From assembly GCA_963711835.1 (NCBI GenBank), contig CAVQFQ010000021.1, positions 224,001-288,000 on the forward strand: DNA of 64,000 bases, read 5' to 3'. The notes below the pieces were generated by a model. The model saw only the letters and a list, made by a program, of their open reading frames with translations. It did not search any database and was not told the DNA's origin. Shown here piece after piece: positions 1,784-40,681 of the stretch (positions within the stretch are counted from its first letter, which is position 1; every line of letters begins with the position of its first letter). A program made the position numbers and the translations under genes. This DNA is from an uncultured delta proteobacterium (GTDB lineage Bacteria > Desulfobacterota > RBG-13-43-22).

Positions 1784-2085
1784 ATCGTTCAAAAGTTGTG
1801 GCATTATATTTGTGATACCCGATGGAAAGGGACCGGGGGTCTTGATTTCAAGGATTGTCCGCCGAAACGCCGGCAGCCTGACCCCGGGCAGGAAGTTTAT
1901 AATGGGGTTAAGAAACAGGCCAACACCAAAGCGATTTATCGGCTTGGGTGAATGCCCGGCTATTAACCAACTTAGAAATTCGGGCCGGGTTGGGGCTACG
2001 GATACCCTTTCGGGCAACCTTGGAATCAAGACCCCCGGTCCCCAAGTCAGTCAATAATACGCCAGTGCCATAACTTTTGAACGTT
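1784..2085 (+). mobile_element. Nested-IR MITE-like element, copy 1 (end type A)
   Basis: Outer IR cgttcaaaagttgtggca (1786-1803)/tgccataacttttgaacg (2066-2083); inner IR 1829-1861/2011-2042; core shared with 22882, 36788, 39801 and 40291. Confidence 0.85.
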
Positions 2086-2854
2086 ACCAAAACACTACTT
2101 GGGCTAAAGGGGCCGCTTCCAGTCCGGATTCTTGTAAGGCCTCTCTGATGGCCTTAGCCAGTTTCCAGGCCCCCGGCGTATCCCCATGGATACAAAAGGT
2201 ATCGGCTTTAAGGCTGATTTCCCGCCCCTCGATGGTTATTAGCCTGCCTGTTTTAAGAATACGGACGACCCTTTCTTTTACCTGTTCCACATCATGGATC
2301 AAGGCTCCGGCCATCGAGCGGGGCGCCAGCCGGCCATCATTTAAATAAGCCCGGTCCGGGAAGGCTTCCTGGGCTATCCTAACCCCGGAAGAGGCGGCCA
2401 TTTGGGCGCCCGGAGATCCGGAAAGCATCACCAGGATCAGCTCCGGATTAAAAATTCTGACCGCTTCAATCACTTCCCGGGCCGTTTTTTCATCCCGGGC
2501 CGCCAGATTATAAAGAGCCCCATGGGGTTTGACATGCTGCAAGATCATCCCGGAAGCCTTTGCGAAAGCATCCAGGGCCCCTATCTGGTATAAAAGGTAA
2601 TTTTTTACTTCACCGGGAAAGGTTTCCAGGTTCCGGCGTCCGTATCCGCAAAGATCCGGATAGCCGGGATGGGCACCCACGGCCACTCCGTGTTCCTTGG
2701 CCAGCTGAACCGTTTTGGCCATGATCATGGGATCACCGGCATGAAAGCCGCAGGCGATGTTGGCTGAGGTGACATACTCGATAATCTTCTCGTCCTCCCC
2801 GATCCGGTAAGAGCCGAAACTCTCTCCCATATCGCAATTGATATCTATCTTCAT
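2084..2854 (-). CDS. pxpA: 5-oxoprolinase subunit A (LamB/YcsF family)
   Basis: IDINCDMGESFG, ANIACGFHAGDP, GAHPGYPD, HVKPHGALYN, CIHGDTPGA. Confidence 0.93.
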   Translation of the reverse strand: MKIDINCDMGESFGSYRIGEDEKIIEYVTSANIACGFHAGDPMIMAKTVQLAKEHGVAVGAHPGYPDLCGYGRRNLETFPGEVKNYLLYQIGALDAFAKASGMILQHVKPHGALYNLAARDEKTAREVIEAVRIFNPELILVMLSGSPGAQMAASSGVRIAQEAFPDRAYLNDGRLAPRSMAGALIHDVEQVKERVVRILKTGRLITIEGREISLKADTFCIHGDTPGAWKLAKAIREALQESGLEAAPLAQVVFW

Positions 2855-2889
2855 CTCAGAACCCTCTTTAGATCGCGAAAGCGATTGCT

Positions 2890-3020
2890 GGTTTTGCCCG
2901 GAGAATAGCCTGCCCCGTAGGTATTAATACGGTGTCCTCCGGGCAAAAATAATGGTCCTCCGACGCCTGCCCCGCAAACGCAACTGACCGGGGTCCGTGT
3001 GGGTCGGTGGCAAAAAAATT
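2890..3020. repeat. Intergenic structured repeat
   Basis: Inverted repeat ttttgcccggag/ctccgggcaaaa and a duplicated gcctgccccg between pxpA and DUF169. Confidence 0.45.
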
Positions 3021-3026
3021 TAGTTA

Positions 3027-3860
3027 TTATTCCTCTCCCCAAACCCTTCGACTGCGAATTATTTTCTTTTTTACCGTGGCCCAGGTTTTGGTGTTCAAGA
3101 AGGATTCCGGCCAGCGATTTATCATACGCTCGAACATCTCGAAGGGAACGGCAAAGGTGAGTTCGTCGGCCTTGAGAAATTTACGGTCCGAGGGGTCCCA
3201 GCCGCCCAGGACGGCCTTCAGTTTCCCCTGGGAAAGATAGCGCAACGGCCAGGTCACAATATTGGAGCATCCCGCCCCGAAAGGGGAAGAAACGGCCTCA
3301 AAGTCATTGGTTACGAAGGTGGCCAATTGGTTCAGCCCGCAGAGAATTTCACCCCGGGCAAAAAAGATCACTACCTCGGGCTGTTCATCCGGACTGAACC
3401 GGCTAATCCCCTTGAAGACACAATAGCGTTTCGGGGCCGGCCGTGGATCGATGGTCTCAAAGAATCGGCGGGTCACTTCAGCCGACTCCAGGTAGTGCTC
3501 CCCTTCCACCTGGTTGGGGATACCCGTTGAAACATAGTAGGTGATAAATTCCAACTGGGGTTTTAAAAAACCAAGATAAAAAGCCCCGCCCAGACAACCA
3601 AAGCGCTCCCGGTCAAAGGTTGCCGCCTGTTTCATCCGCCGGGCCCGCCAGATGTTCCCGATAACGCATGAGAATTGACCGAAGAGTTCTCCCCAGTTCA
3701 CCTCCCCCCGTGCTTCGGCCTCCGCCGTAGGCAACGATCCGGCCTTTGGTGAAAAGCCTCCCTGAGGGGCCTGGTCGGTATAGAACATACCAAACGGTTC
3801 TTCCGTTAATCCCAGGACTTCCAAAAAGCCGCTCAGACCTTCCTTAATCTTTTCTTCCAT
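3027..3860 (-). CDS. DUF169 family protein
   Basis: SCVIG...FGCLGG..YLGF, PEVVIFF, PFGAGCS, LGGWDPSDRKFLKADELTFAVP. Confidence 0.8.
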   Translation of the reverse strand: MEEKIKEGLSGFLEVLGLTEEPFGMFYTDQAPQGGFSPKAGSLPTAEAEARGEVNWGELFGQFSCVIGNIWRARRMKQAATFDRERFGCLGGAFYLGFLKPQLEFITYYVSTGIPNQVEGEHYLESAEVTRRFFETIDPRPAPKRYCVFKGISRFSPDEQPEVVIFFARGEILCGLNQLATFVTNDFEAVSSPFGAGCSNIVTWPLRYLSQGKLKAVLGGWDPSDRKFLKADELTFAVPFEMFERMINRWPESFLNTKTWATVKKKIIRSRRVWGEE

Positions 3861-3914
3861 AACTAGTCCTTTCTTCTTTGGATCCCCGGTTATTCCTGAG
3901 TTGGTTTTTTAAGG

Positions 3915-3954
3915 TCACTCGGTTTTCTTCCACCTGTAGAAGAAAACCGAGTGA
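3915..3954. repeat. Perfect 16-bp hairpin between divergent genes
   Basis: tcactcggttttcttc-cacctgta-gaagaaaaccgagtga. Confidence 0.7.
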
Positions 3955-4012
3955 ACCAAAATTTAGAATAGACCGGGGGAGAAGTCAATCTATTGCGGCA
4001 GTTTCTTTTTAT

Positions 4013-4041
4013 TTGACTTCCCCAAAGCAGGTTTTTAAGAT
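4013..4041 (+). promoter_or_regulatory. sigma70-type promoter
   Basis: TTGACT-17-TAAGAT ahead of GAGGG RBS and ATG 4064. Confidence 0.55.
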
Positions 4042-4063
4042 GGCAAAAAAGAGGGAATTATTA

Positions 4064-4993
4064 ATGTCGAACAGGACCCAACAAAAACTTATGTCCCTTT
4101 CAGAAGCAATCGCCCGTTTTGTATCCCCGGGGAAATCCATCACCTTAGGGACCTCTCTGGAAGGGTTGATCCCTTTTGCGGCCGGGCATGAAATAATTCG
4201 CCAGGGCCTTCAGGACCTGACCCTGATCGGGCCTATTTCCGATGTGCTTTTCGACCAGCTCATCGGAGGAGGCTGCGTCTCCAAAATCCGAGCCGCTTGG
4301 GTTGGGAATGTCGCCACCGGCATCGGCTACCACTTCCGAAGGGCTGTGGAGCAGAGTCTCCCCCACCCCATTGAAGTGGAAAACCATTCCAACTTCTCCA
4401 TTGCCCTGGGGCTTCATGCCGGGGCCTTGGACGTCCCCTATTTGCCCTGCCGCAGTCTCTTGGGATCCGACATCATTCGAGACAACCCTCATTTTAAGGA
4501 GTCCCTCTGTCCTTTCAGCGGCGAAAAATTGCTGCTGGTGCAGGCCCTTTGTCCTGATCTGGCCATCGTCCATGTTCAAAGGGCCGATCCCCAGGGGAAT
4601 GCCCATCTCTGGGGCAACATGGGCGTAACGGTTGATGCGGCCAAGGCCAGCCGGGAGGTGATCGTCATCGCCGAAGAAATCGTCGATCCCGAAGTGATTC
4701 GGAGCGATCCCAATCGCACCGTTATCCCCGGATTTATCGTCTCAGCCGTGGTCGAAGAGCCTTGGGGCGCCCACCCCTCGGCCGTCCAGGGGTACTATGG
4801 GCATGATGACCCGGTTTATGTGGACTATGCTCAGCAGACGCGGACCCTCGCCGGGAGCCGGGAATGGTACCAAAAATGGGTCTACGGTGTGATGGACCGG
4901 AAGGACTATTTAAAACTGATTCCGCAAAAGCAGTTAAAGGGTCTTCAGGTCAAAAAATCCGCCCCCGCGGCCTTTACTGAATTCGGGTATTAA
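4064..4993 (+). CDS. CoA-transferase alpha subunit (glutaconate/3-oxoadipate CoA-transferase family)
   Basis: KLMSLSEAIARFV, IPFAAGHEIIRQG, AGALDVPYLP, PDLAIVHVQRADPQGNA, PWGAHPS; start moved to the ATG with an RBS. Confidence 0.88.
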   Translation: MSNRTQQKLMSLSEAIARFVSPGKSITLGTSLEGLIPFAAGHEIIRQGLQDLTLIGPISDVLFDQLIGGGCVSKIRAAWVGNVATGIGYHFRRAVEQSLPHPIEVENHSNFSIALGLHAGALDVPYLPCRSLLGSDIIRDNPHFKESLCPFSGEKLLLVQALCPDLAIVHVQRADPQGNAHLWGNMGVTVDAAKASREVIVIAEEIVDPEVIRSDPNRTVIPGFIVSAVVEEPWGAHPSAVQGYYGHDDPVYVDYAQQTRTLAGSREWYQKWVYGVMDRKDYLKLIPQKQLKGLQVKKSAPAAFTEFGY

Positions 4994-4999
4994 GGAACT

Positions 5000-6373
5000 A
5001 TGAAAAAGGAAGTCTATAAAGCCCTGGAAAAGATCGTCGGTCCCCAGCACATCTCCGATCGGGATACCGACCTCCAGTGCTACAGTTACGATGCCACCCA
5101 GATCAGCGTTCGCCCGGAGGCGGTGATCTTTCCCGAAGGCGCCTCGGAAATCAGCCGGATCATGGTCCTGGCCAACCGGCATCGTTTTCCGGTTGTCCCC
5201 CGCGGCGCCGGCTCGGGTTTCAGCGGCGGTTCGGTGCCGATTCAAGGAGGATTGGTGCTTGTCCTGCTGCGTCTCAACCGGATAAAAAAAATCGATACCA
5301 GTAATTTCCTGGCGGTGGTCGAACCCGGGGTCATCACTAAAGATTTCCAGCAGGCGGTTGAGGCCCTAAGGCTTTTCTACCCGCCCGATCCCTCCTCGCT
5401 GGCTTTTTCCAGCCTGGGGGGCAATGTGGCCGAGTGCGCCGGCGGAGGCCGGGCCGTCAAATACGGGGTAACCAGGGATTATGTGCTCGGGCTGGAAGTA
5501 GTCTTGCCGACCGGTGAGATAATCAAGACCGGGGTCCGGACCGCCAAAGGTGTGGTGGGCTATGATCTGACGCGGTTGTTGATCGGCTCGGAAGGCACCC
5601 TGGGGGTGATCACTGAAATCACGGTTAAGCTCCTGCCCAAGCCTGAATCTACAAAAACCATCCTGGCCTTTTTTGACCGGCTGGCCCTGGCCACCCAGGC
5701 CGTAGTTGAACTCTTTCAATCCGGTGTCCTGCCCTCCATCCTCGAATTGATGGACCAGCCCTCCATCAAGGTCGTTGAGGAATATCTTCATCTCGGATTG
5801 CCCACCAAAGCCCAAGCGCTTCTTTTGATAGAGATAGACGGCCAAGAAGAATCCATTTCCAGCCAGGCCAAATCCATTCAACAAACCCTGGAACGACTGG
5901 AAGCCACAGGGTTCCGAATGGCCTCTTCGGCCCAAGAGGCGGATGAGTTGTGGAAAGCCCGCCGGGCCATCTCACCGGCCCTCTTTCGTCTCAAACCCAA
6001 CAAGATCAATGAAGACATCGTCGTGCCCCGGGATAAGATCCCGGAGGCCATTGAGCGGTTTCAAGAAATCGGTTCCCGTCTGGGATTGTTGATCGTCAGT
6101 TTCGGCCATGCCGGGGACGGCAACATCCATGTCAATGTCATGTACGACGCCGAAAATCCGGAGGAGGACGCCAAGGCCAAAACCGCTGTCGATGAAATCT
6201 TCAGGACGGTTATGGCCCTGGGTGGGACCCTCTCCGGTGAACACGGCGTCGGTTTGACCAAAGCGCCCTATCTTTCGATGGAATTGGATCCGGTTTCCAT
6301 AGCCCTGATGAAAAAGATCAAATCCCTCTTTGATCCCAACAATATATTGAATCCCGGCAAGATCTTCGTTTGA
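5000..6373 (+). CDS. glcD: FAD-linked 2-hydroxyacid dehydrogenase, GlcD family
   Basis: PRGAGSGFSGG, YPPDPSS, SLGGNVAECAGG, GSEGTLG, GHAGDGNIH, SGEHGVG, DPNNILNPGK. Confidence 0.85.
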   Translation: MKKEVYKALEKIVGPQHISDRDTDLQCYSYDATQISVRPEAVIFPEGASEISRIMVLANRHRFPVVPRGAGSGFSGGSVPIQGGLVLVLLRLNRIKKIDTSNFLAVVEPGVITKDFQQAVEALRLFYPPDPSSLAFSSLGGNVAECAGGGRAVKYGVTRDYVLGLEVVLPTGEIIKTGVRTAKGVVGYDLTRLLIGSEGTLGVITEITVKLLPKPESTKTILAFFDRLALATQAVVELFQSGVLPSILELMDQPSIKVVEEYLHLGLPTKAQALLLIEIDGQEESISSQAKSIQQTLERLEATGFRMASSAQEADELWKARRAISPALFRLKPNKINEDIVVPRDKIPEAIERFQEIGSRLGLLIVSFGHAGDGNIHVNVMYDAENPEEDAKAKTAVDEIFRTVMALGGTLSGEHGVGLTKAPYLSMELDPVSIALMKKIKSLFDPNNILNPGKIFV

Positions 6374-10503: not shown

Positions 10504-10585
10504 AAAAAGGCCCCATAATTTTCCTTAGCTTCTTTCTTTACCGAGTTTTAGAATTTATTTCTAACATTGGGACCGACATAACCTT

Positions 10586-10703
10586 TAAATCCGAAACAAG
10601 CACGAAGGTCCAAAATTTAAATTACCAAAACAAAAACTTTTAAAATTTTGAGATTTGGTCATTTGAATTTGTTTCGGATTTCGATATTCGGGTTTCGAGT
10701 TTT
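10586..10703. repeat. Heptamer-periodic inverted repeat element
   Basis: aaatccgaaacaa ... ttgtttcggatttcgatattcgggtttcgagttt. Confidence 0.65.
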
Positions 10704-11850
10704 AAGTCGCTTTTCTATTTGGAGGCGGTGTATTCCGGCTCACCTGGGTCTTTATAAGGCCATCAATCAAGACCATGGCGATCCCCGGGATATCCCCGGC
10801 CTCGATGGCCTCTTTGGCATCTTTCCCGACCGAACCCATAGGGGCGTCAATAATCTGCAGATCGGCTTCGTCCCCAGCCTTGATCCTGCCGTGAGGCAAC
10901 GAAAAAACGTGCTGGGTGTTTCCCGTGGCCAGGCATACAGCCGCTTCCGCCGGGATATCGCCCAAGGCCGAGAGAAAATTGACCATCCTCCAAATCCCCA
11001 AGGGGATGACGCCGGTGCCGGAGGGCGCATCATTGCCGAGGATAAGCCTGGATAGGATCTCTTTCTCTTTCATATACCTTGCAATTCCAAGGGCCGTCTT
11101 GGGATTGCCACAATGCACAATCTCTATGGCACAGCCGGTCTTATCAATCACCCGTCGGGCCTCATCCAGAGAGATACTCGTAGGCCCCCCATTTAAATGA
11201 CAAGCCACGGTAGGATTGGCTGTCAGGACATCATCGCAGGTAACGGTGGCGCTGCCGGGAATGGAGGTGCCGCCCACATGCATCAGGACCTTCATGCCGA
11301 CCTTCTTGGCCCATTCTACCATGATTTTAGCCTCTCCGGCAGCCTTTACGCTGCCGAGGCCAATCTCCCCCACCAGCCAGACACCGTTTTCGGCGAGCTC
11401 TTTGAAGTCTTCTTCGATCAAGCCCTTTTCCAGAATCAGGGCCCCGCCGTAGACCTTCACACCCGAGGGTCTCAGTTTGGCAAAAGATTTCTGGGCCAGG
11501 ACGGCCAGGGCCTTTGTTCCGGCCCGGTCAGTGGGCCGCCCGGGCAGATGGACCTCCCCGGCTGAGATCATGCTCGTGACACCGCCGTGCAGGCTGCTGT
11601 CGATAAAACTCAACTGGTTCTGCCTGGGGGTAAAGTCCCCGAAGACCGGATGGGCATGGGAATCAATGAAGCCCGGGCAGACTGTCATCCCATTGGCATC
11701 AATGGTCTTTCCCGCCTCGAAGGAATTGCCTCTTCCAATGGCTTTAATTTTCCCATCCTCGATGAGAATAGAGGCCGGCCCTTCTATCAATGGATTGTTC
11801 AAATCGCCGGTAAAAATGGTCCCGATATTCGTGATGCTTAAACTGCTCAT
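10702..11850 (-). CDS. ena: Enamidase (amidohydrolase superfamily)
   Basis: PGFIDSHAHPVFGDFTPRQNQ, SAGEVHLPGRP, HVGGTSIPGS, GNDAPSGTGVIPLG, SRNTPP; ATG 11850 has an AGGAG RBS. Confidence 0.9.
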   Translation of the reverse strand: MSSLSITNIGTIFTGDLNNPLIEGPASILIEDGKIKAIGRGNSFEAGKTIDANGMTVCPGFIDSHAHPVFGDFTPRQNQLSFIDSSLHGGVTSMISAGEVHLPGRPTDRAGTKALAVLAQKSFAKLRPSGVKVYGGALILEKGLIEEDFKELAENGVWLVGEIGLGSVKAAGEAKIMVEWAKKVGMKVLMHVGGTSIPGSATVTCDDVLTANPTVACHLNGGPTSISLDEARRVIDKTGCAIEIVHCGNPKTALGIARYMKEKEILSRLILGNDAPSGTGVIPLGIWRMVNFLSALGDIPAEAAVCLATGNTQHVFSLPHGRIKAGDEADLQIIDAPMGSVGKDAKEAIEAGDIPGIAMVLIDGLIKTQVSRNTPPPNRKAT

Positions 11851-22881: not shown

Positions 22882-23169
22882 CTTATTAAGGGTCTCATAA
22901 TTGAGGAGCTTGCATTAAATGGGCCCGGGGAGTCTTCTTTTCTGGGTTGTCCACCTTCAAGCCCAAAGCTTCTTTGCCGGGCCAAATTCGGGATCTAATT
23001 CAGAGACAGGCCTACCCTAATGCCCGAAACGGTCTTGAGTGAATGCCCTGCACCTAACCCACTTAGCCGTCCGGGCCGGGATAGGGCGATGAGTTGCCCT
23101 TTGGACAACCCCAGAAAAGAAGACCCCCCGGGCCCTGTTGGTCACTATTATTTTGAGACTCTTAATAAG
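22882..23169 (+). mobile_element. Nested-IR MITE-like element, divergent copy (end type C)
   Basis: Outer IR 22882-22901/23150-23169 (18/20); inner IR 22921-22953/23102-23135; core aggcctaccctaatgc...cttgagtgaatgccctgc...cttag...cgggccggg matches the other copies. Confidence 0.8.
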
Positions 23170-24487: not shown

Positions 24488-24711
24488 TATCTGCCCTTTT
24501 TCTTCCGGACTGATAGATAGTCGTCTAAGCTTCGGGAGGGTTCCTTGCGACGTTGCTCGATAATAACGGTATCGATCAAGTCTTCAAGAAATTCCTTGTC
24601 GCTCAGCATTTTATCAACGACAGCCTCTCTGGTCTTCTTTGGCAAAGCCCGAAAAGCTGTCAAGAAGACCTCGGACGTTGCCTCTATGGTAGTCATGGCA
24701 AGCACCTCCAT
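24487..24711 (-). CDS. Putative antitoxin of the RelE module
   Basis: Small protein (EDLIDTVIIEQRRKEPSRSLDDYL) coupled to relE; true start probably the second Met. Confidence 0.72.
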   Translation of the reverse strand: MEVLAMTTIEATSEVFLTAFRALPKKTREAVVDKMLSDKEFLEDLIDTVIIEQRRKEPSRSLDDYLSVRKKKGR

Positions 24712-24884
24712 TTCCTTTTTTTATTATAACAAATGGTCAAACGATATCAACCATCGAATACGCAGTCCCTTTTTACAGAGTGCCACCGCCGGAGGCCGGG
24801 TTCTTTTCAACTGGCGGTATCTCCCCCCGGTTGAAAAATATTTCATCTCTGCGTCTTTCGCTTCTCCGCGGTAAATACTGTATT

Positions 24885-25131
24885 TGGCCGGCCGGCCGGG
24901 ATTATTCCGGGATTCCTCCCGTCCTGCGATCCAGACCTTGAAAGTCCGGGGATCGGCCTCTTCGATCTGGTCGATCAGCCAGTCCTTGACTTCCAGGACC
25001 AGCAGGCCCTGCTGTTTGCCGAAAAGAACGAAGTCGGGCTCCTTGCCCTGTTCCCCGATGGTTGGCTCATACCAGCCGATAAAGTCGTTATCCGGCCGGG
25101 CCGCTTCCCGGAGGAACCGAAATACTTTCCG
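24885..25131 (-). pseudogene. NERD-domain nuclease fragment A
   Basis: RKVFRFLREAARPDNDFIGWYEP...EPDFVLF...GLLVLEVKDW (PD-(D/E)xK); truncated at both ends. Confidence 0.75.
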
Positions 25132-25303
25132 ACCCATCGTTCAGGACTTAATAAGCCTGCCCCGGCTGGTAATCAGCCTGGGGGATCCAGCTCTTAAAGC
25201 TGTCCCATCCACATTATATCCACCTTTTAAAGGCCAGCCCCTTCTCCATAGGAACATGGTTTTCTGTCCAGGGTCTTTGCCTATTCTTTTCCAAATAAAT
25301 TTC

Positions 25304-25334
25304 TTGACAACAAAAATAATAAAGTTATACTTTT
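25304..25334 (+). promoter_or_regulatory. vapBC promoter with palindromic operator
   Basis: TTGACA-16-TATACT, overlapped by aaagt-tat-acttt. Confidence 0.6.
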
Positions 25335-25354
25335 CATAATAAAGGAGAACTTTT

Positions 25355-25606
25355 ATGGCCCTGGCACAAATCTCCCCCAAAGGTCAAATTTTACTCCCCA
25401 AGAGGATTCGAAATAAATACGGAGTGCGGCCTGGGGGAAAAGTCCATCTTCTGGAACAAGCCGACGGCATTCTTATCAAGCCGGCCCCCCAGGATCCTGT
25501 AGAGACCGCCTGCGGGTTTCTTAAAGGCGATTTTCCCCTGACCAAAGATCTTCTCAAGGAACACCTCAAAGAACGGCGCCATGGAACAACCCGTCATCCT
25601 CGATAG
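25355..25606 (+). CDS. AbrB-type antitoxin (VapB)
   Basis: AQISPKGQILLPKRIRNKYGVRPG; overlaps the PIN toxin gene. Confidence 0.88.
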   Translation: MALAQISPKGQILLPKRIRNKYGVRPGGKVHLLEQADGILIKPAPQDPVETACGFLKGDFPLTKDLLKEHLKERRHGTTRHPR

Positions 25607-25997
25607 TTTTGCGTTAATCAGCCTGTTTCACCGGGAACCCGGCTGGGAAACAGTCCATTCCATTCTAAAAGACCTAGCCCAAAAAAAGAAGAAGGCCGTT
25701 CTATGCCGGATTAACTGGGGCGAATTCTACTACATTGTAAAAAGGCGCGTCGGCCAGACCAAAACACTGGAGGCCCTGGCATTGATCGAACAATTGCCCA
25801 TAGACATTCTTTCGGTGGACGATCCGCTGATCAGCGAAGCGGCAGAAATCAAGGCCGATTATCCCATCGCCTATGCAGATGCCTTTTGTGTGGCTACGGC
25901 CAAGAGAATGGATGGCCTGATAGTGACCAGCGATCCTGAATTTAAGGCTGTGGAAAAATTGATTCCGGTACGATGGATAACCGGCCGGAAAAAATAA
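25581..25997 (+). CDS. vapC: PIN-domain toxin
   Basis: VILDSFAL, INWGEFYY, IAYADAFCVATA, IVTSDPEF. Confidence 0.9.
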   Translation: MEQPVILDSFALISLFHREPGWETVHSILKDLAQKKKKAVLCRINWGEFYYIVKRRVGQTKTLEALALIEQLPIDILSVDDPLISEAAEIKADYPIAYADAFCVATAKRMDGLIVTSDPEFKAVEKLIPVRWITGRKK

Positions 25998-26039
25998 TCC
26001 GATTTTTTCCACACCAAGAAATCCTCTTTTTGATAACGT

Positions 26040-26140
26040 AAGACCTTCCGTTCGCCCTCGGTGGCGCTTGCCAGGCCTTCGATATCCTCGGGGTGCATGC
26101 GGGCCATGTCAATTTTATTCCACGAATTCAAGAACGTCCC
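26040..26140 (-). pseudogene. NERD gene 5' fragment B
   Basis: MARMHPEDIEGLASATEGERKV from ATG 26107; near-identical to 27381-27481. Confidence 0.75.
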
Positions 26141-26160
26141 GGACTTTGAAATAATCCTAC

Positions 26161-26212
26161 TTGATTTTTTCCACCACATAGTGTAAATTTTAACCATGAA
26201 GGTGGTGGAAAA
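26161..26212. promoter_or_regulatory. Bipartite palindromic site overlapping a leaderless promoter
   Basis: TTTTCCACCAC(26167-26177)-N24-GTGGTGGAAAA(26202-26212); TTGATT-17-TAAATT with ATG 26196 just downstream. Confidence 0.7.
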
Positions 26213-26528
26213 GGATAGGTTAGTCGACGGCATGCTTCAGGAAGAACTGAAGCGGTGCCACGATATGGTCTCTTCCCTGGAACAGGAAATCGTCCGCCTG
26301 CCTAAAGGGTCTCTCCACGTTCGGAAAAAACAATATAAAAAAAAGCGATACCGATATTTTTATTTGAAATACCGGGAAGGAGAGAAAAGCGTCAGCCGTC
26401 ATGTTCCTGCGCCTCAACTGGAAGCTTTAAAAAAAGAATTGGACAAACGGAGGGATATCGGAAAGGAAATCAAAGCCTATCAAGACCGGATTAAGTACCT
26501 GGAGAAAGTCCTTGGATTAAAGGCTTAA
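26196..26528 (+). CDS. Basic coiled-coil protein, putative DNA-binding partner of the nucleotidyltransferase
   Basis: LPKGSLHVRK...YFYLKYREGEKSVSRHV flanked by coiled coils. Confidence 0.7.
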   Translation: MKVVEKDRLVDGMLQEELKRCHDMVSSLEQEIVRLPKGSLHVRKKQYKKKRYRYFYLKYREGEKSVSRHVPAPQLEALKKELDKRRDIGKEIKAYQDRIKYLEKVLGLKA

Positions 26529-26534
26529 GCAATC

Positions 26535-27221
26535 ATGGAAGTAGCCCTTAAAAATAAAACCGTTATTCCTAAAAATGTGGCGGACATTCTTCGCTCCCTC
26601 TCCTTGGCCGATTTCTTTTCTCAGGGGTTGCTGGTCGGGAGCTGGGTGATGCTGCTCTACAAGGAAATTTTCAGGATCCGTTATACACTGAGGACCTTCG
26701 ATATAGATTTTGCCCTGGAAACCATCACTCCGGTATCCGGAAATTTTGTGGATCTCGAAAAGACACTCACCGACCTGGGTTATCTGGTGGTTACCGACTA
26801 CCATACGGGTTTACGGAAGTTCACCAGGGAGGGTTTGGAGGTCGAATTCCTGATTCACCGTAAAGGCGGCCGGGACGTCCCAAAGATAGAAGTTAAGCAC
26901 CTGAACGTCAGCGCCCTTCCGCTCCCGCATGTCGACATCCTGTTCTTATTTCCGATAATCGTTGATTTCGGAGATTATAAAATCCGCATCCCTTCTCCGG
27001 AAGCCCTATTTCTCCACAAATTGATTATTGCCCAGAAAAGAAAAAGTGAGGCCAAGAAAGAAAACGACCTTGCCCAGTGCAAAATTTTATCAGTCGCCCT
27101 TAATTCCGAAAAACTACGACAAATTTTTATAACTTTAAAATTCAGCATGAAGACCCGTGGTTTGATAGCTACCTCCTGTAGGGCCATCAATTTTCCACCA
27201 CATTTTCTTGATTTCAAATAG
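26535..27221 (+). CDS. GSU2403-like nucleotidyltransferase-fold protein
   Basis: LLVGSW, LRTFDIDF (GS...DxD), VEFL, PSPEALFLHKLIIAQKR. Confidence 0.78.
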   Translation: MEVALKNKTVIPKNVADILRSLSLADFFSQGLLVGSWVMLLYKEIFRIRYTLRTFDIDFALETITPVSGNFVDLEKTLTDLGYLVVTDYHTGLRKFTREGLEVEFLIHRKGGRDVPKIEVKHLNVSALPLPHVDILFLFPIIVDFGDYKIRIPSPEALFLHKLIIAQKRKSEAKKENDLAQCKILSVALNSEKLRQIFITLKFSMKTRGLIATSCRAINFPPHFLDFK

Positions 27222-27237
27222 TATGTGGTGGAAAAAA
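27191..27237. repeat. Second bipartite palindromic site
   Basis: TTTTCCACCAC(27191-27201)-N23-GTGGTGGAAAA(27225-27235). Confidence 0.75.
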
Positions 27238-27320
27238 ACCTTCTGAACTTGGGCTTCACCCCCCTTCGAACTTTTCACCTTTTAGGACTTACCTTTGAGG
27301 GTCCGACCTCAAATCACAAC

Positions 27321-27481
27321 GTTGGTTCATACCAACCGATAAAATCCGAGTCCGGCCGGGCCGCTTCCCGGAGGAAACGAAAGACCTTCCGTTCGCCCTC
27401 GGTGGGGCTTTCCAGGCCTTCGATATCCTCGGGGTGCATGCGGGCCATGTCAATTTAATTCCACGAATTCAAGAACGTCCC
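27321..27481 (-). pseudogene. NERD gene 5' fragment C
   Basis: MARMHPEDIEGLESPTEGERKVFRFLREAARPDSDFIGWYEPT from ATG 27448; homologous to both A and B. Confidence 0.75.
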
Positions 27482-27549
27482 AGTCTCCATGCTAATTTTT
27501 TCTGCACTCTCGGAACGAACGTCCCCTATTCCAGGGAAGGGCTAAGGGA

Positions 27550-27873
27550 TCAGGAAAAGATTTTTCTCGGGAGAGTTTTTATCTCCAATATTTCTGTTGT
27601 TTTCAATTTCCCCAACTTTCTCAATATAAACCGTTTTTCTATGGTGGCTTGTTTGCTCAACCTTATAGTCGAGGCAGCAAGTAATCCACCTTTTTCCCAA
27701 TTAGATATTTTATAATCCGTTTCGGAGCTATAGTCCTGAGTCGTTACCCTGGCAACAAGAACGTCCTGATCCCCTGAATCATATAAAACGAACGCCGGTC
27801 TTCTGGTTATTCCTTCCAAATCCGAATGAGGGAATCCGATAAAAACGATATCTCCAAAATCATAGGTCATCAT
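27550..27873 (-). CDS. PemK/MazF family toxin
   Basis: GDIVFIGFPHSD...RRPAFVL...VARVTT...GGLLAASTIR. Confidence 0.88.
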   Translation of the reverse strand: MMTYDFGDIVFIGFPHSDLEGITRRPAFVLYDSGDQDVLVARVTTQDYSSETDYKISNWEKGGLLAASTIRLSKQATIEKRFILRKLGKLKTTEILEIKTLPRKIFS

Positions 27874-28063
27874 AGATGGCGTCCTTTTCGGTATACCCCC
27901 TTAAAAACTCGGACATCACAAAATTATTCCAATCTGATTCTTCATCTCCGATTAAAAGCGTTACTTTCACTTTGGTCTTTTGACGTAATTTTTCTTTTAG
28001 CTTTTCCGGGACAGAAAGATGCCCATCGGCTAAAACTTCGGCCACATATTCATAAGTTTCCAT
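27860..28063 (-). CDS. Putative antitoxin of the PemK module
   Basis: Overlaps the toxin start; acidic tail FLRGYTEKDAIYDDL; GGAGG RBS. Confidence 0.75.
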   Translation of the reverse strand: METYEYVAEVLADGHLSVPEKLKEKLRQKTKVKVTLLIGDEESDWNNFVMSEFLRGYTEKDAIYDDL

Positions 28064-28236
28064 TTTAACCTCCATTCTCGCCATTGGCATGTCGAGATGG
28101 CAAATTGATCGGGACGTTTTTTTATTTTATTCCTGTCATTCACTCCTGTCAACCCGCGGTTCCCGACTATCCGGCCGGTGGCAGGATCGGCGTCCCTGTC
28201 TGGCCTCGATCCCGATTTAGATATAGCTACCTCCCC

Positions 28237-28566
28237 AGTTAAATGACCCCCGGCAAAGCCGGGGGCTTATCTTTGTTAGCCCCCCAAGGGGGCCGTTTCA
28301 TGAGTCCCATGAAGGGGACATACTTCATATTCAGACTTGGGAAGGTGGAGACGCCCATCTTTCTTTGTTTGTTCAGGAGTATATTTCTTAACGATTTTTA
28401 TTCCTGACCAATGGGCATTTCCAGAATATTTAAACTCTTAAAAGATTTTTGGTTTAATCTCCGAGTGCAAAATTCAGCGATTTATATTGGTGGTTTTTAC
28501 TATTCTATTGCCTCACACGGTCAAACCTTTCGGAGTCCCCCGGCAAAGCCGGGGGTTTACCTGTTA
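28237..28566 (-). mobile_element. Internally deleted IS200/IS605-family remnant
   Basis: Identical subterminal hairpins cccccggc-aaa-gccggggg at 28247-28265 and 28537-28555; degenerate Y1 TnpA tail IGQE*KIVKKYTPEQTKKD. Confidence 0.72.
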
Positions 28567-28570
28567 GAAA

Positions 28571-28705
28571 TTATGGAAGTCGTTGGCAAAGGCGCATAGG
28601 GATGATCCGCTGCGTAGGCTGTCCGCTGGCATCAAGCTCCCAGTGACGTGCTGGGTATTCGTAGGGGGAGTTTAGGATCGGCTTTTCGAAGACACGGTTT
28701 TCCAT
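28571..28705 (-). pseudogene. N-terminal fragment of a type III restriction Res-like helicase (BPTD_3080-like)
   Basis: MENRVFEKPILNSPYEYPARHWELDASGQPTQRII, ending next to the IS200 remnant. Confidence 0.7.
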
Positions 28706-28761
28706 TTTTATGTTCTCACCGATAGTCTATTTTATTAATTGCCTTGGCAAAAACCTATAAT

Positions 28762-28941
28762 GGGACCCGTTGGTGCAGGAGTTGCTTCTTTCAGCTACCA
28801 TTTCCGGCCTCAACAAAAACTCCAGGTCCCTGAATCATTTCCTGCCATATTTAGCCCGGGGCTCCCTGGCCAGAAAGCCGATTTTCTTTCTGGGCTGCTC
28901 CGGCGGCGTCATAAGCTGCCGGATGGCCTCAAAGACCACCC
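28762..28941 (-). repeat. 180-bp direct repeat copy 1 (ORF6N-gene 3' end plus downstream DNA)
   Basis: Collinear with 29714-29893; encodes VVFEAIRQLMTPPEQPRKKIGF...YGRK*. Confidence 0.85.
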
Positions 28942-29043
28942 TCAAAACAGTATTCAGGAGTCAGGAGCCAGAAGAGGATTGAAACTCCTTTTTTACTTCC
29001 CCTTCACAATTGCAATATCAAATCCGCCGGGCAAACCGGAACG

Positions 29044-29400
29044 CTATGCATTTTCGGACCGCAATCGCGCCCTGATCTCTGAGAGCTTCTGTTTAAAGGC
29101 CGGTATATCCCTAATGAGTATTTCCCAGATCATTTCGACATCAATATCAAAGTAATCATGGACAATCCGGTGTCTCAAACCGATGATTTTGTGCCACTGA
29201 ATTGCAATATGATGATCTCGAAATTCTTTCGGCAATTGATTGGCTGCTTCCCCCAGGATCTCAAAATTTCGCACCACCGAATCAATCGTTTTCTCGTCCT
29301 GAATAAACCTCTCCCGATCAAAACCGGCAGTATAACGTTCAACTTTTTCGACCGCCTCCCAAAGGTCTTCGATTAACAGATCAACCGATCTATGTGACAT
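29044..29400 (-). CDS. HEPN/DUF86 ribonuclease toxin (HepT-like)
   Basis: DSVVRNFEILGEAA; GLRHRIVHDYF (Rx4H). Confidence 0.9.
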   Translation of the reverse strand: MSHRSVDLLIEDLWEAVEKVERYTAGFDRERFIQDEKTIDSVVRNFEILGEAANQLPKEFRDHHIAIQWHKIIGLRHRIVHDYFDIDVEMIWEILIRDIPAFKQKLSEIRARLRSENA

Positions 29401-29683
29401 CGATCAAATCCTCCTGGATAATGGTCCAATACCTTGCCTTGATAGCGCGACTGGAAACGACATCCGTCGGTACTCCCAGGGCAGTCTCAATTTCTTCGGC
29501 CAAGTCCACAAATCGGAGTCCAATGGCCGGATCCACCTCCACAAGAATATCCACATCGCTGTCTTTCGCATAATCCCCCCGGGCATATGAGCCAAAGAGC
29601 GCCAGCCGGGAAATGCCAAAACGGTTGGTCAAGTCAGGTTTATGCTCCTGTAGAATTTTTAGAATTTCTTCCCTGGTTTTCAT
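29390..29683 (-). CDS. Minimal nucleotidyltransferase antitoxin (MntA-like)
   Basis: LFGSYARGD...SDVDILVE (GSx10DxD). Confidence 0.9.
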   Translation of the reverse strand: MKTREEILKILQEHKPDLTNRFGISRLALFGSYARGDYAKDSDVDILVEVDPAIGLRFVDLAEEIETALGVPTDVVSSRAIKARYWTIIQEDLIDVT

Positions 29684-29713
29684 AAATAGATCTCCTCATT
29701 AAAGGATTTAGTG

Positions 29714-29893
29714 GGGACCCGTTGGTGCAGAGATTGCTCCTTTTAGCTAACATTACCGACACCAAAAAAAACTCCAGGTCCTTGAATCATTTCCTGCCGT
29801 ATCTGGCCCTGGGCTCTCCGGCCAGAAAGCCTATTTTCTTTCTAGGCCTTTCCAGGGGCTTCATGAGCTGCCGGATGGCCTCAAAGACCACCC
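29714..29893 (-). repeat. 180-bp direct repeat copy 2
   Basis: Collinear with 28762-28941. Confidence 0.85.
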
Positions 29894-30120
29894 GGAACTG
29901 CTCATCATATTTCTCTTCAAGGGCGGCCAGCTTACGGGCCAGATCCTTGTGGGCAGGCAACCGTTGCCCTTAATCTAACAAAAACCCGCATGATCTGGAT
30001 ATTTACCTCAATCGCCCGGTCGCTATTCAGAATCCCGGAAAGCATGGCAACCCCCTGCTCGGTGAAGGCAAGAACATTTGGAGCATGCTTTATTTTTGAA
30101 CATATCACAATTTGTGATAT
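29787..30120 (-). pseudogene. ORF6N-domain protein, 5'-truncated and frameshifted
   Basis: SQIVI...[34 protein letters not shown], frameshift, then [30 protein letters not shown]. Confidence 0.8.
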
Positions 30121-30392
30121 GTTCCGGAATCTCTTCCCAGGGGCGTGGTCCCGGTTGGCCTGGTAGTAAAGGACAAGGCCGGACGCCTGGAGTATAAGCT
30201 TCAGGATGCCGAAAATAAAAAGACCCTGCTCTTCAAGTAGAAGGCAGGGTCTATAAGTTTCATTCATCCTCCGGGTTTAAGGTTAGATGATAAAAGAAAG
30301 GTAAATTTAATAGGATAGGCTTCAAATAGCATGTATTAAGAACGTTGTCAATTTATGGAAACAGGACCTTATTCTGCCCCGGTTAAATGAAT

Positions 30393-30581
30393 TTAACATT
30401 GAGGACGGCCCTCTCCTCTGACCTCGGTGATTTCCACCAGGGCCTGGTTAAGGGCTTCCTCCAGGGTAAGGAAGTCCGGCTCCCCGGTTTCAGGGGCAAG
30501 AAGCGGGAAGAGGGTCAGGTTTTTATGGGACTGGGGGTGGGCGACCTTGACCAGGTCGAGAAAGGTTTTGATGGTTTCCAT
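30393..30581 (-). pseudogene. N-terminal fragment resembling the DUF6569/ARPP-1 family
   Basis: HKNLTLFPLL...FLTLEEAL...VEITEV then an early stop; GAGGAGG RBS. Confidence 0.55.
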
Positions 30582-30802
30582 GGGTTATTCCTCCTCATTT
30601 TTCGATTTTAAGGAGGAGCCTAACACCCGGCATTGTCAGATCAGGACAAATGGAGGATTATTTTTTTTGCGTGTAATACCAGTTCGGATCCAGGTACCTT
30701 CCCAGCTTCTCCTTGAGTTCTGAGGGAAACTCTTCAACCTTCTCAGTCAATAAGGTGTTCGTTTCCTCGTCTGTCAAGGGGACCTTGTCGAGAAACTTGG
30801 GC

Positions 30803-30883
30803 TTGACTATAGAATTTAAAGTGGTTAGATTATTACTTAAAAATCCCCCCATCTCAGTGAGAAATAGAGATGCTGGGGGTTTT
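30803..30883 (+). promoter_or_regulatory. sigma70-type promoter followed by a 5'UTR stem-loop
   Basis: TTGACT-17-TAGATT (30803-30831); aaaatccccccatctc...gagatgctgggggtttt. Confidence 0.6.
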
Positions 30884-30898
30884 CCGTTGGAGGGAAAG

Positions 30899-31117
30899 AT
30901 GCCAATATATGAATATCGCTGTCAGGACTGTGACCAGATCTTCGAAAAGATTATCTGGAATACCGATAAGGAGACTGTTTGTTGTCCAAGTTGTAAAGGA
31001 GATAAGGTCCTGCGGCTTCTCTCGGCTTTTTCTTCGGGCAGTCCTCGGGGAGGCCAGGGAGTTTCCCTTCCTTCTACCTGCGGACCTTCGTCGTCAGGAT
31101 TTTCGTGAGCCTCTTAA
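30899..31117 (+). CDS. FmdB-family zinc-ribbon protein, candidate C-terminal selenocysteine (ends at 31108 if UGA is a stop)
   Basis: MPIYEYRCQDC...CPSC...LSAF; tail CGPSSSGFS-TGA-AS-TAA with a downstream hairpin. Confidence 0.85.
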
Positions 31118-33647: not shown

Positions 33648-33724
33648 TGGCTGGGGTGGGAGGATTCGAACCTCCGAATGCGGGTTCCAAAGACCCGTGT
33701 CTTAAGCCGCTTGACGACACCCCA
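33648..33724 (-). tRNA. tRNA-Gln(TTG)
   Basis: Cloverleaf with anticodon arm CGGGT-CT TTG GA-ACCCG, GGTTCGAATCC and encoded CCA; usual position between ispE and prs. Confidence 0.95.
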
Positions 33725-36744: not shown

Positions 36745-36774
36745 TTGACACCTTAGGATAAATTAGGTTAAAAT
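36745..36774 (+). promoter_or_regulatory. sigma70-type promoter reading into the repeat element
   Basis: TTGACA-18-TAAAAT, 13 nt before the element at 36788. Confidence 0.5.
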
Positions 36775-36787
36775 TTTTTATTTAAAA

Positions 36788-37125
36788 TCGGGGATAGTCC
36801 CAAAGTTACCTGATTCTCAAACTGAAGGGGTAGCCTCTTAAAATATTAAATCACCCCAAAGGGCTTCGGGGGTCTTGATTTCAAGGATTGTCCGCCAAAA
36901 CGTCGGCAGCCTGAACCCGGGCAGGAAGTTTATAAGTGGGGTTTAGAAACAGGCCAACACCAAAGCGATTTATCGTCTTGGGTGAATGCCCGGCTCCCAA
37001 CCAACTTAGAAATTCGGGCCGGGTTGGGGCTATGGATTACCATTCGGACAACCTTGGAATCAAGACCCCTGAAGCCCTCGACTAATGGAGTGCTTAAAAA
37101 TCACATAACTTTGGGACAAACTCTA
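36788..37125 (+). mobile_element. Nested-IR MITE-like element (end type B)
   Basis: Ends gggatagtcccaaagtta/taactttgggacaaactcta; inner IR agggcttcgggggtcttgatttcaaggattgtccg/cggacaaccttggaatcaagacccctgaagccct; core nearly identical to copy 1. Confidence 0.88.
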
Positions 37126-37154
37126 AAACCGAGGATTGGGAGAGAGGCTGAGAC

Positions 37155-37379: not shown

Positions 37380-37859
37380 TCCCTGATAACGGCCGACGAT
37401 CCGCTGGATAAGCTTCGTGGTGGATATGGAGGGAACTAATTGGATGCGCCTGACCTGGCCGCCGTAAGACCGGACCAGGTCCGCCCCGATAATCTTTTCC
37501 TCCGGCCAGTCCGCCCCCTTAACCAGGATATGAGGTTTAATCGCCTCAATCAGTCGAAAAGGATCCGGCTCATTGAAAAGCACGACATAGGAAACGCATT
37601 CCAGGGCCGCCAGGACCTCGGCCCGGTCGTCTTCGGCCGTCAGGGGTCGGTGGGGCCCTTTAATCTCCCGGACCGAGCGGTCGCTGTTTAAGCCCAGGAT
37701 AAGGCTGTCTCCCAGACTTCGGGCCTCTTTTAGGTAGCGGACATGGCCCACATGAAGAAGATCAAAACAACCGTTGGTAAAAACTATCCTTTGGCCTCGT
37801 TTCCTCAGGTCGGCGGCTATTTCGGCAATCTGATTCTGGGGAATGATCTTGTTTTTCAT
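37356..37859 (-). CDS. rfaE2: D-glycero-beta-D-manno-heptose 1-phosphate adenylyltransferase (RfaE domain II)
   Basis: VFTNGCFDLLHVGHVRYL, GLNSDRSV, LVKGADW, STT; ATGA overlap with comF. Confidence 0.92.
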   Translation of the reverse strand: MKNKIIPQNQIAEIAADLRKRGQRIVFTNGCFDLLHVGHVRYLKEARSLGDSLILGLNSDRSVREIKGPHRPLTAEDDRAEVLAALECVSYVVLFNEPDPFRLIEAIKPHILVKGADWPEEKIIGADLVRSYGGQVRRIQLVPSISTTKLIQRIVGRYQGLLSEKGE

Positions 37860-38581
37860 TCCAGTCCTACCCGGGCCAGGGTCAACACGGAAACCTCCCG
37901 GGCCCCGGCTTTTTTTAGAATCTTGGCGCATTCATTGACCGTGGCCCCGGTGGTAAAGACATCATCCACCAAGAGGATCCTCCGTTTGCGGACTGCGGCC
38001 TGATCCCGGACCGCAAAAGCCCCCCGGACATTTTTTTCCCGCTCTTTGGGATTAAGGTGGACCTGGGGCAGGGTATCCCGAATACGTTTTAAGGCCCTCG
38101 GCAAGATTTCTTTTCCAAGGCTACAGCCGAGAGTCTTCCCCATTAAAAGGGCCTGGTTAAATCCCCTTTCCCGCAACCGGGAGAGATGCAGGGGAACCGG
38201 CACAATGGCATCAAAGGAAAGGTCCCCCAAGTCCATCTCCTTCCAAAACCGGCCCAGCGGTTCGCTGAGGGTGAACTCCTTGTGATATTTAAAGCGATGC
38301 AAGGCCCGGACGATAATGCCCCGGTAAAGGACCACCCCCCTGGCCCAATCGAAATAGTACTTTCCCTTTAAACAATCCGAACAAAGATGCGATAAATTCC
38401 CGGCCGGGTAAGGCAGCCCGCAACCCGGGCAAAAAGGCGGGGTTATCCAATGAATATCCTTTTCGCATCCTTGGCAAAATCCTCCTGGAAAGGCCTCTGA
38501 GGGCCTTCTGAGGGTCTGACACAAGGAGCAGTGGTCTGGGAAAAAGAGGGAAATTAACCCGAACCACCAAGCGGAGGTCAT
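37856..38581 (-). CDS. comF: ComF family protein
   Basis: N-terminal double zinc ribbon; [16 protein letters not shown]; [12 protein letters not shown]. Confidence 0.9.
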
Positions 38582-39765
38582 GGGATTCTTTCAATCAGGG
38601 CCTGGCCGAATTGGGAGCAGGAGACCTCTACGGCATCCCTTACCTGGCGGGCCAGATCGTAGGTGAAAATACGATCCGAAAAAGTTCGTTCCAGGCCCTG
38701 ATAAAGAACAGCAGCAGCCTCCGGCCAGCCCAGGTGTTCGAAGAGCATGGCCCCGGAAAGGATCAAGGAGCCCGGATTTACCCTGTCCAGACCTGCATAT
38801 TGCGGAGCCGAACCGTGCGTCGCTTCAAATATGGCGCACTCATCGCCCAGATTGGCGCCGGGCGCCATGCCTAACCCCCCCACCTGGGCAGCCAGGGCGT
38901 CCGATAAATAATCCCCGTTCAAATTGGTGGTGGCGATAACCGAATACTCAGCCGGACGCAACAGAACCTGCTGAAACATCATATCGGCAATACGGTCTTT
39001 TATGACGACCTTTGAGCCCCTTTCCCCTTCCGGCCGGCTTTCGGCCTCGGTTGAAGTCCGGTCGGGGAACTCTGTCCGGGCCAATTCATAGCCCCATTCC
39101 CGGAAGGCCCCTTCGGTAAATTTCATGATGTTGCCCTTATGGACCAGCGTCAGACTGGGCTTTTGAAAACGCAGGGCATATTCAATGGCCCGGCGGACCA
39201 GGCGCTGGGTGCCGAACCGGCTGATCGGTTTTATGCCGATCCCGGAGTCTCGAGGCAATTTCTTTCCGGTCTTTTTTTCGATCCAGTCCAGAAGCTCCCC
39301 GGCTTCAGGGCTTTCAGCCGGCCATTCGATACCGGCATAGACGTCCTCGGTATTTTCCCGAAAGATGACCATATTCACCGCTTCCGGATCTCGCATCGGG
39401 CTGGGCACGCCGCTGAAATAGCGAACCGGCCGGAGACAGACATAAAGATCCAGGATCTGTCTCAATTGCACGTTCAGGCTCCGGATACCTTTGCCCACCG
39501 GGGTCGTTAAGGGTCCCTTAAGGGCCACCCCATGTCGGCGAATAGTCTTTAGGCTTTCTTCCGGCAGCCATTCCCCGGTCCGGGCAAAGGCCTTTTCCCC
39601 GGCCGGAACCTCCAGCCATTCGATAGTCCGGCGGCCGGAGTAGGCCTTTTTTAAGGCCGCCTCCAAAACCGGCCGGGAGGCCCTCCATATATCCGGACCG
39701 GTGCCATCCCCTTCAATAAAGGGAACCACGATCTGATCGGTTGTTTCCGTTCTCCAGAAAGGCAT
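38578..39765 (-). CDS. icd: NADP-dependent isocitrate dehydrogenase
   Basis: [53 protein letters not shown]. Confidence 0.96.
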
Positions 39766-39800
39766 TTTTTACGGTCCTCGACTTAACTCTTAAACAAAAG

Positions 39801-40116
39801 ATCGTTCAGTAAGTTGTGGCACTGGCGTATTATTGCCTTACTGGGGACCGGGGGCCTTGATTTCAAGGCTTGTCCAAAGGGTGATCCTTCCCGCCAATCC
39901 GGCCCAGATTTCTAAGGTTGGTTTAGAGCCGGGCATTCACCCAACCGAACAAACAGCTTTGGTGTAGGCCTACTTAAGGCATTATCGTCAACCTTCCAGT
40001 CCCGCTAAAAGCGGGATTTCAAGGTGAGGAGTTTATGGTGGACAACCTTGAAATCAAGACCCCCGGTCCCCTTCCATCGGGTATCAAAAATATAATGCCA
40101 CAAGCTTCTGAACGAT
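39801..40116 (-). mobile_element. Nested-IR MITE-like element (end type A, inverted, diverged core)
   Basis: Ends atcgttcagtaagttgtggca/tgccacaagcttctgaacgat; arms match copy 1 in reverse orientation. Confidence 0.85.
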
Positions 40117-40290
40117 GCCAACAAAAGGCATCCCAATTTCATAACAAAAGGGCTTCAAGAATACAATCAAATAACCTTTTTTTTTGCCTTAGGGCACTTT
40201 TTGATTAGACTATCAATCCTATTTATGTAAAAATTACAACAAAATAATCGAGATAGCCGTCATGGGTTCGGTTCGGTGTGATTTTAAGAT

Positions 40291-40681
40291 TAGGGATAGT
40301 CCCAAAGTTACGTGATTCTCAAACCGAAGGGGGTGTCTCTTAAAATATTAAATCACCCCAAAGGGCTTCAGGGGTCTTGATTTCAAGGATTGTCCGCCAA
40401 AACGCCGCTAGCCTGACCCCGGGCAGGAAGTTTATAATGGGGTTTAGAAACAGGCCAACACCAAAGCTATTTATCGTCGGCGGGATGAATGCCCGGCTCC
40501 CAACCAACTTAGAAATTCGGGCCGGGTTCTTCGCATCCAAAACAATGCTCAGTCCCACTCCTGCGGAGTGGATCCCAGTTTGGGGCTACGGATTGCCTTT
40601 CGGACAACCTTGAAATCAAGACCCCCGAAGCCCTCTATGAATGGAGTGCTTAAAAATTACGTAACTTTGGGACAAACTCTA
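40291..40681 (+). mobile_element. Nested-IR MITE-like element (end type B) with a 53-bp insert
   Basis: Collinear with 36788-37125 apart from an insertion at 40529-40581; TA at both ends. Confidence 0.88.

Follow-up and report, generated by a model that had tools for sequence, protein, structure and literature searches.

Families of miniature inverted-repeat transposable elements (MITEs) are usually defined by their ends, and their interior is dispensable. Here we describe a family in which one constrained interior moved among at least four end types in a single genome, and two of these end types were traced to different transposase families. The stretch studied (the window) comprises 64,000 nt of contig CAVQFQ010000021.1 (positions 224,001 to 288,000) from an uncultured delta proteobacterium of the Desulfobacterota. 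A preliminary description of the window had reported five copies of a short element with nested inverted repeats (IRs) and a shared core. All five were found, with borders differing by a few bases, and each had an outer and an inner IR pair. We call the inner IR pair with everything between it the cassette, and the ends around it the shell. The composite architecture and the mobility of the whole elements are well supported, and we consider them very probable. The family of composite MITEs is real and, within the searches made, apparently undescribed; no shared MITE passenger was found in the literature searched, of which a limited part is searchable. The cassette itself may be an old palindromic selfish element with enzyme-read motifs that colonised MITE shells, a reading to which we give a probability of about 0.5. 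The features of the five copies were:

1781..2088, + strand: composite MITE, shell B (ISH6-type terminal inverted repeats, TIRs), 308 bp; 8-bp target duplication degenerate, 2 mismatches
1829..2042, + strand: cassette, alpha type; inner IR arms 1829-1860 and 2012-2042
22886..23165, + strand: composite MITE, shell C (IS630-type TIRs), 280 bp; TA on both sides; left arm shortened internally
22921..23135, + strand: cassette, gamma type; inner IR arms 22921-22953 and 23103-23135
36791..37123, + strand: composite MITE, shell A, 333 bp; 8-bp target duplication, 1 mismatch
36860..37078, + strand: cassette, alpha type; inner IR arms 36860-36893 and 37046-37078
39801..40119, - strand: composite MITE, shell B, inverted; same 8-mer at 39793-39800 and at 40120-40127
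39843..40071, - strand: cassette, beta type, interrupted by a small palindrome; inner IR arms 39843-39875 and 40040-40071
40293..40679, + strand: composite MITE, shell A, 387 bp; target duplication not conserved
40362..40634, + strand: cassette, alpha type; inner IR arms 40362-40395 and 40602-40634

The three outer IR types that had been distinguished are real: the copies reported at 1784 and 39801 have B ends, the one at 22882 C ends, and those at 36788 and 40291 A ends. The cores reported as nearly identical at 1784 and 36788 match at 149 of 162 aligned cassette positions (92%) within different ends. The nested IRs of the described layout held, and its division of the interior did not: the separate '55-nt variable segment' is the mirror of the core's 3' part, and both form one degenerate palindrome. 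The inner arms of the five copies measure 25–27 nt ungapped (93–96%) and ~33 nt when extended with the TTGTCC/GGACAA motif; the outer arms measure 20–33 nt. The invariant motifs of the cassette at 1829..2042 are AGGCC at 1917 and GGGCCGG at 1982. One TIR of the copy at 39801..40119 is without its three terminal bases, and the cassette at 40362..40634 holds a ~55-nt secondary palindromic insertion near 40527-40581.

Several described systems come close. Correia and RUP elements are IS630-family MITEs. Like these, shell C has TIRs that match an IS630 element nearly base for base and lies between TA dinucleotides, but its interior is invertible and common to non-IS630 shells. ISH6-derived MITEs are p-MULT 2, Mutator-like elements (PMC3942029). 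Shell B shares with the ISH6 element end its first 17 nt (≤1 mismatch), the 8-bp duplication and the AT-rich target; in contrast, it has no transposase and its interior is an unrelated cassette, and shell B makes up only about a quarter of the copies. REPINs and BIMEs with their RAYT proteins (PMC6006769) are likewise intergenic and present in many copies, with two inverted related arms, a long imperfect hairpin and a host encoding Y1 HUH proteins. The cassette differs in having no conserved GTAG/GTGG tag, no short terminal hairpin and no REPtron-like gene; moreover, it is far longer and always sits in an IS-derived shell. With TIRtrons (TIRYT, TnpA-Y1 subclass 2.1; PMC3733652, PMC6006769) the cassette IR shares an initial G-run followed by TC, and with the Y1-flanking TIRs of this family it shares TTG.C 12 nt in, but it fails the GGGGWSAS consensus and a profile test and never flanks a Y1 gene. 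Finally, template switching at quasi-palindromes (PMC8604942) produces the same arm homogenisation and spacer inversion, whereas the cassette has nested repeats and a spacer of ~150 nt, much longer than in the yeast cases of that paper.

The family and its shells

A hidden Markov model built from the five window cores found 127 copies at E<=1e-3 in the host assembly (G000, 3.9 Mb, 89% complete). The reversed genome gave 0 at the same threshold, meaning that the copies are not chance matches. The assembly mixes strains: contig C27 represents an alternate haplotype of C17:355113-364958 (97.6% identity), and at least two of the 127 copies are duplicates for this reason. A composite transposon at this place was rejected in favour of the alternate haplotype. 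Targeting of tRNA genes was also rejected, with one of the 127 copies near a tRNA.

Each element is ~280–390 bp long and consists of an outer shell and a ~215-bp cassette bounded by a 33-bp IR. By inner-IR type, 45 copies were A, 33 B, 16 C and 25 D, and eight were unclassified. Shell D, with its 25 copies, is a fourth type in the genome; it has no TIRs and carries a CTAA-like tetramer at both ends. Minor other shells occur too. At least four types are present in the host genome and about eight across the family. The left and right arms are asymmetric and class-specific. Among copies with both TIRs, 8-bp direct repeats flanked 25 of 38 A and 21 of 26 B copies, compared with 1.9% (A) and 4.8% (B) in a mismatched-flank control. 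The B targets follow mostly AA....TT, which fits the ISH6 preference AANATNTT (PMC3942029). Shell C lay between TA dinucleotides in 10 of 15 cases, which is uninformative alone because the control reached 63%. The family is thus short, non-coding and multi-copy like other MITEs, and TIRs with 8-bp target duplication are present in A and B.

Empty sites were present in related strains for A, B and D copies. One B copy was missing by exactly the element plus 8 bp in 4 of 4 related runs, and one D copy was missing at the orthologous site in 3 of 4. Within the window, the A copy at 36791..37123 (short flanks) and the B copy at 39801..40119 were each missing in contigs of 2 of 4 related runs. Hence, whole elements move.

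The preliminary description had also expected the ends to belong to different transposases, and for two shells this was borne out. A 1.63-kb element from another family of the phylum is flanked by B-type TIRs; its 459-aa frame encodes an ISH6 transposase (483 bits, cut-off 240), and it is without the cassette. Likewise, C-type TIRs delimit an element of 1,112 bp that encodes an IS630 transposase (244 bits, cut-off 100). Judged by these sequence matches, the shell B ends are of ISH6 and the shell C ends of IS630 origin. For shell A, no transposase-bearing element sharing its ends was found and hits stayed at chance level. For shell D, no matching ends were seen at the IS110 or Y1 loci examined, and D was not found enclosing a gene; IS110 and IS200 were rejected as donors as their ends differ. 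As the cognate transposase of shell C, PF13358 was looked for and not found in the 89% complete host assembly.

The cassette was found only in one Desulfobacterota family. The sequence model detected it in 5 of 151 genomes of the phylum, all from the host's family, and BLAST in 7 of 20 family relatives. The exact pattern occurred at 18 loci in five metagenome-assembled genomes labelled Deltaproteobacteria, Thermodesulfobacteriota or Pseudomonadota. A metagenome scan for the IR gave 44 loci; among the matches listed, all were cassette copies, some of them in further shells. Plasmids gave no match. Viral carriage was rejected for the core, whose hit was chance, and for shell A, whose hit lay in unrelated sequence; shells C and D had viral hits as well. 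Of 105 copies outside the host, 93 sat in known shells. Most of the remaining 12 had a degenerate or new shell, and two were unclear.

The shells reach further than the cassette. The D-arm motif was present in 21 of 21 family genomes, and D-type ends matched in 13 genomes of other families (401 searched). In genera g2 and g3 and in other families, D shells carry unrelated palindromes or almost nothing, and C-type shells carry other hairpins both in other families and in the host genome. Loci L424-L442 and L395-L415 of other families hold D-type (TTAG-ended, TIR-less) and IS630-type shells with many unrelated palindromic cargos; a minimal D shell measured ~48 bp (L434). At 10520-10710 (- strand) of the window, a D-type arm adjoins a different hairpin cargo (CGAAATCCGAAAC type), meaning that the window itself holds a shell with another passenger. 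The earlier contrast with ordinary MITEs, which were said to keep their ends while the interior drifts, was right about the constrained interior. It was overstated in that each shell keeps its own TIRs and shells carry unrelated hairpin cargos across the phylum.

Sharing of one core among interchangeable ends was also seen on the cassette tree, where shells were exchanged repeatedly: 37 shell-label changes were counted, compared with a minimum of 9 and a shuffled mean of 61, with some labels ambiguous. D is widespread on this tree, B and C each occupy two separate clades, and A and B interleave. The elements at C25:45073-45300 and L175 are chimeras of C, A and D shell pieces or of D-left and C-right, and are possible intermediates of shell exchange.

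Constraint, inversion and the preferred reading

The 33-bp IR has the form GG-N5-GGGGGTCTT...TTGTCCA, in which N5 is lineage-specific and mirrored. The claim that the core is under selection was upheld at short motifs of the interior: 19 of 148 interior columns were ≥95% conserved (116 sequences under 93% identity), including two hexamer runs. The maximum was 4 such columns in 200 homogeneous-rate simulations, which ignore recombination between copies; some of the sequences had been found through the core. The conservation profile was mirror-symmetric (rho 0.48; 0 of 55 shifted controls as high), and rate heterogeneity was strong (log-likelihood -8879 with gamma, -9215 without). At loci found only by IR or shell patterns, AGGCC was kept in 52 of 56 cassettes, and the second motif was in place in 46 of 56, with several misses displaced by insertions. 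A reading of TTGTCCAC as a DnaA box was rejected, since its positions 7-9 vary and a host box cluster was not found.

Small palindromic elements repeatedly insert into the cassette, even into an IR arm, and are sometimes nested three deep (L284-L287, L170, L416, window 40527-40581). At C10:53700-55860 (L447), a B-type cassette contains a small palindrome into which a two-ORF DDE element (a helix-turn-helix (HTH) protein and DDE_Tnp_1) has inserted.

Within all four shells, both orientations of the cassette occur: 8 of 38 A, 2 of 28 B, 3 of 15 C and 8 of 18 D copies were flipped. The nearest neighbour of a flipped copy was also flipped in only 6 of 21 cases. A flip at a single orthologous locus was looked for and not demonstrated. 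Diagnostic markers placed crossovers at varying points in both the inner IR and the outer TIR. Mirrored non-consensus changes of the inner arms numbered 19, 32, 5 and 64 in A, B, C and D, with random-pair means of 5.5, 6.8, 0.4 and 17.6; A and D were well above random, and B and C exceeded the mean by a large margin but had a shuffled maximum close or equal. Thirty-six mirrored variants were private to one copy. The host also holds ~30 cassette-free shells. These are collapsed hairpins with heterogeneous junctions and hence deletion products, so they were rejected as pre-insertion sites.

Template switching between IR arms yields arm homogenisation and spacer inversion (PMC8604942). By analogy, it is the likely cause here too, across a spacer of ~150 nt. 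The copies form a natural series on inversion and arm homogenisation across such a spacer in bacteria.

Our preferred reading joins these observations as follows. The shells would be end pairs of insertion sequences, likely moved in trans by their own transposases. An enzyme would read the conserved motifs on fold-back DNA. Flipping, arm matching and collapse would involve no dedicated invertase and would result from recombination across the 33-bp IR or from template switching by a polymerase. The weakest steps concern history: the cassette may have entered MITE shells in the manner of other palindromic cargos, beginning with D; later changes of shell may have come about through repeated insertion or IR recombination, and the copies that multiply would be those whose motifs are intact. 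More tentatively, and rather less probably than the reading as a whole, the cassette could be a gene-less hyperparasite of MITEs that uses its enzyme-read motifs to colonise or boost the ends of ISH6, of IS630, of a TIR-less type and of at least five more. If so, it would be part of a modular system that spans the phylum, with free recombination between shells and palindromic cargos. Enzyme-read motifs would mean a second tier of parasitism and would point the way to a new single-strand DNA or hairpin-processing activity.

As to the enzyme, an HUH protein (Y1, RAYT/TIRYT-like) is the best candidate, which on sequence grounds is a lead and not a membership. Twelve Y1_Tnp matches were found in the host, most of them IR-flanked proteins of ~330 aa, and Y1 HUH proteins are encoded in 21 of 21 family genomes (~210 Y1 matches). 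The host proteins resemble the TIRYT class (PMC3733652, PMC6006769). The G-run and TTG.C of the cassette IR have the same spacing as the family's Y1-flanking TIRs. About ten divergent Y1-HUH plus HTH genes with IRs occur per genome (C12:141793, C17:498780, C17:165498, C8:125762, C5:298416 and others; relatives L140-L155), and in one subgroup the TIR is conserved as GGGGTC-N12-TTGAC and contains a -35-like box. A cognate enzyme between close copies was rejected, as the starts of the open reading frames (ORFs) in nine close pairs resembled ordinary host genes by eye.

Several results weigh against the preferred reading. Scored against the family's TIRYT-type TIRs, the cassette IR had a median of -9.7, at the 75th percentile of an AT-rich background, compared with 10–25 for those TIRs. 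In REP sequences (PMC6006769), a tag of GTAG or GTGG lies 0-2 nt from a short hairpin that is fully paired; GTAG stood at the only candidate place in 40 of 116 cassettes. At the 35 Y1 loci examined, neither a cassette beside the gene nor a repeat-flanked RAYT gene was found. Cassette arms enclosed no gene at 18 unpaired arms or among the metagenome matches listed. No cassette was clearly free of a shell among the copies examined, which would be unusual for an element that moves independently. On inspection, the cassette tips showed no target duplication, and D-arm remnants in other shells appeared only weakly in A. Transposases of IS630, IS1595 and IS1 were not found in the incomplete host assembly, and an ISH6 transposase was found in 0 of 21 family genomes (one protein query, incomplete assemblies). 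The simulations described above leave out recombination, and the yeast inversions in PMC8604942 have spacers of only a few bases.

Alternative explanations of the cassette

The motifs could also act in double-stranded DNA. The cassette would then be an accessory module in which symmetric protein sites ~30 bp apart, or a cruciform, pair the shell ends, and carriers would out-transpose other elements. The mirror pairs of motifs are spaced at about three helical turns and the interior length is tightly held (157–165 nt in 33 of 56 copies; several longer ones among those listed hold insertions). The constant presence of a shell and the 127 cassette-bearing copies compared with ~30 collapsed forms listed also speak for such a module. 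However, it would have to help the unrelated chemistries of ISH6, IS630 and the TIR-less D. These shells also spread while carrying unrelated hairpins or next to nothing, and interior insertions of 10–180 nt are tolerated though they break the motif spacing. We consider this explanation unlikely.

Doubtful to a slightly greater degree is a neutral relic, that is, two long and once-similar ancient transposon ends joined after a deletion, with the conservation reflecting history and ascertainment. The ~150-nt interior is indeed a degenerate palindrome, with a self reverse-complement z of up to 4.9 (near 0 in several lineages). Moreover, the cognate gene was not found, and there is no positional or strand preference. 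The strong rate heterogeneity argues otherwise, as does the persistence of the two invariant hexamers among divergent spacers and at core-independent loci. It is also difficult to see how a passive relic came to be captured by at least eight shells.

The preliminary description had proposed a structured non-coding RNA (ncRNA) as one possible nature of the core, and it had not recognised a named RNA. The latter agreed with the Rfam search, which gave nothing at gathering score for the cassette; the best score was a signal recognition particle hit of 28.5 bits (gathering score 105). The former was not supported, with no Rfam match, no interior helix of genuine covariation and no orientation bias. 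Apart from the IR stem, RNAalifold on 50 diverse copies kept only a 4-bp GGCC/GGCC helix and two weak pairs, and covariation was almost absent in the interior. The GGCC/GGCC helix is formed by the two invariant hexamers and was 100% paired in the 50 sequences, with one double change and two G-U changes. Among 228 sequences there were nine pair-keeping and eight pair-breaking departures before one artefact was removed, and only one double change was real. A 4-bp RNA helix at this place is weakly possible. Interior folding z-scores ranged from +1.2 to -4.1, and mutual information in the cassette was dominated by phylogeny.

Copies were oriented 33:42 relative to flanking genes, 13 of 114 lay in convergent gaps (208 of 1586 background gaps, so not enriched), and one of the 127 lay inside a called ORF. 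A decayed protein was rejected, as codon periodicity was absent and stops occurred in all frames (24 sequences). A terminator or cis-regulator was rejected as well: there was no orientation, convergent-gap or leading/lagging bias, judged with crude ORF calls. RNA runs X14 and X20 have assembled contigs over the region; such contigs do not show transcription. A new RNA gene is unlikely, because there is no credible Rfam match, reading frame or strand bias and almost no covariation. The same holds for a structured ncRNA or ribozyme, with the 33-bp stem as its closing helix, that would aid its own spread or protect host transcripts. The paired helix would fit such an RNA, as would the invariant unpaired residues, which we take to resemble catalytic cores. 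Against it stand the pair-breaking departures and the free flipping of the cassette, and we regard it as improbable. Taken against the forms of refutation named earlier, the end types do not trace to one insertion sequence with the core inside, the core is not a decayed protein, and its conservation goes beyond duplication.

A phase switch, with a Hin- or Fim-type site-specific invertase acting at the 33-bp IRs, is very improbable. Both orientations occur in all four shells and the IR length presumably suits a recombinase site, but the crossover markers vary, outer TIRs are inverted or converted too, and arms have been homogenised and have collapsed. With ~125 dispersed copies, the genome would be prone to scrambling, and no dedicated recombinase was seen, with no search aimed at recombinases made.

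Other features of the window

The only Rfam hit in the window was a tRNA gene:

33651-33724, - strand: tRNA gene

Small genes with PIN, PemK/MazF-like and nucleotidyltransferase domains are clustered at 24500-31100 and resemble a toxin-antitoxin island.

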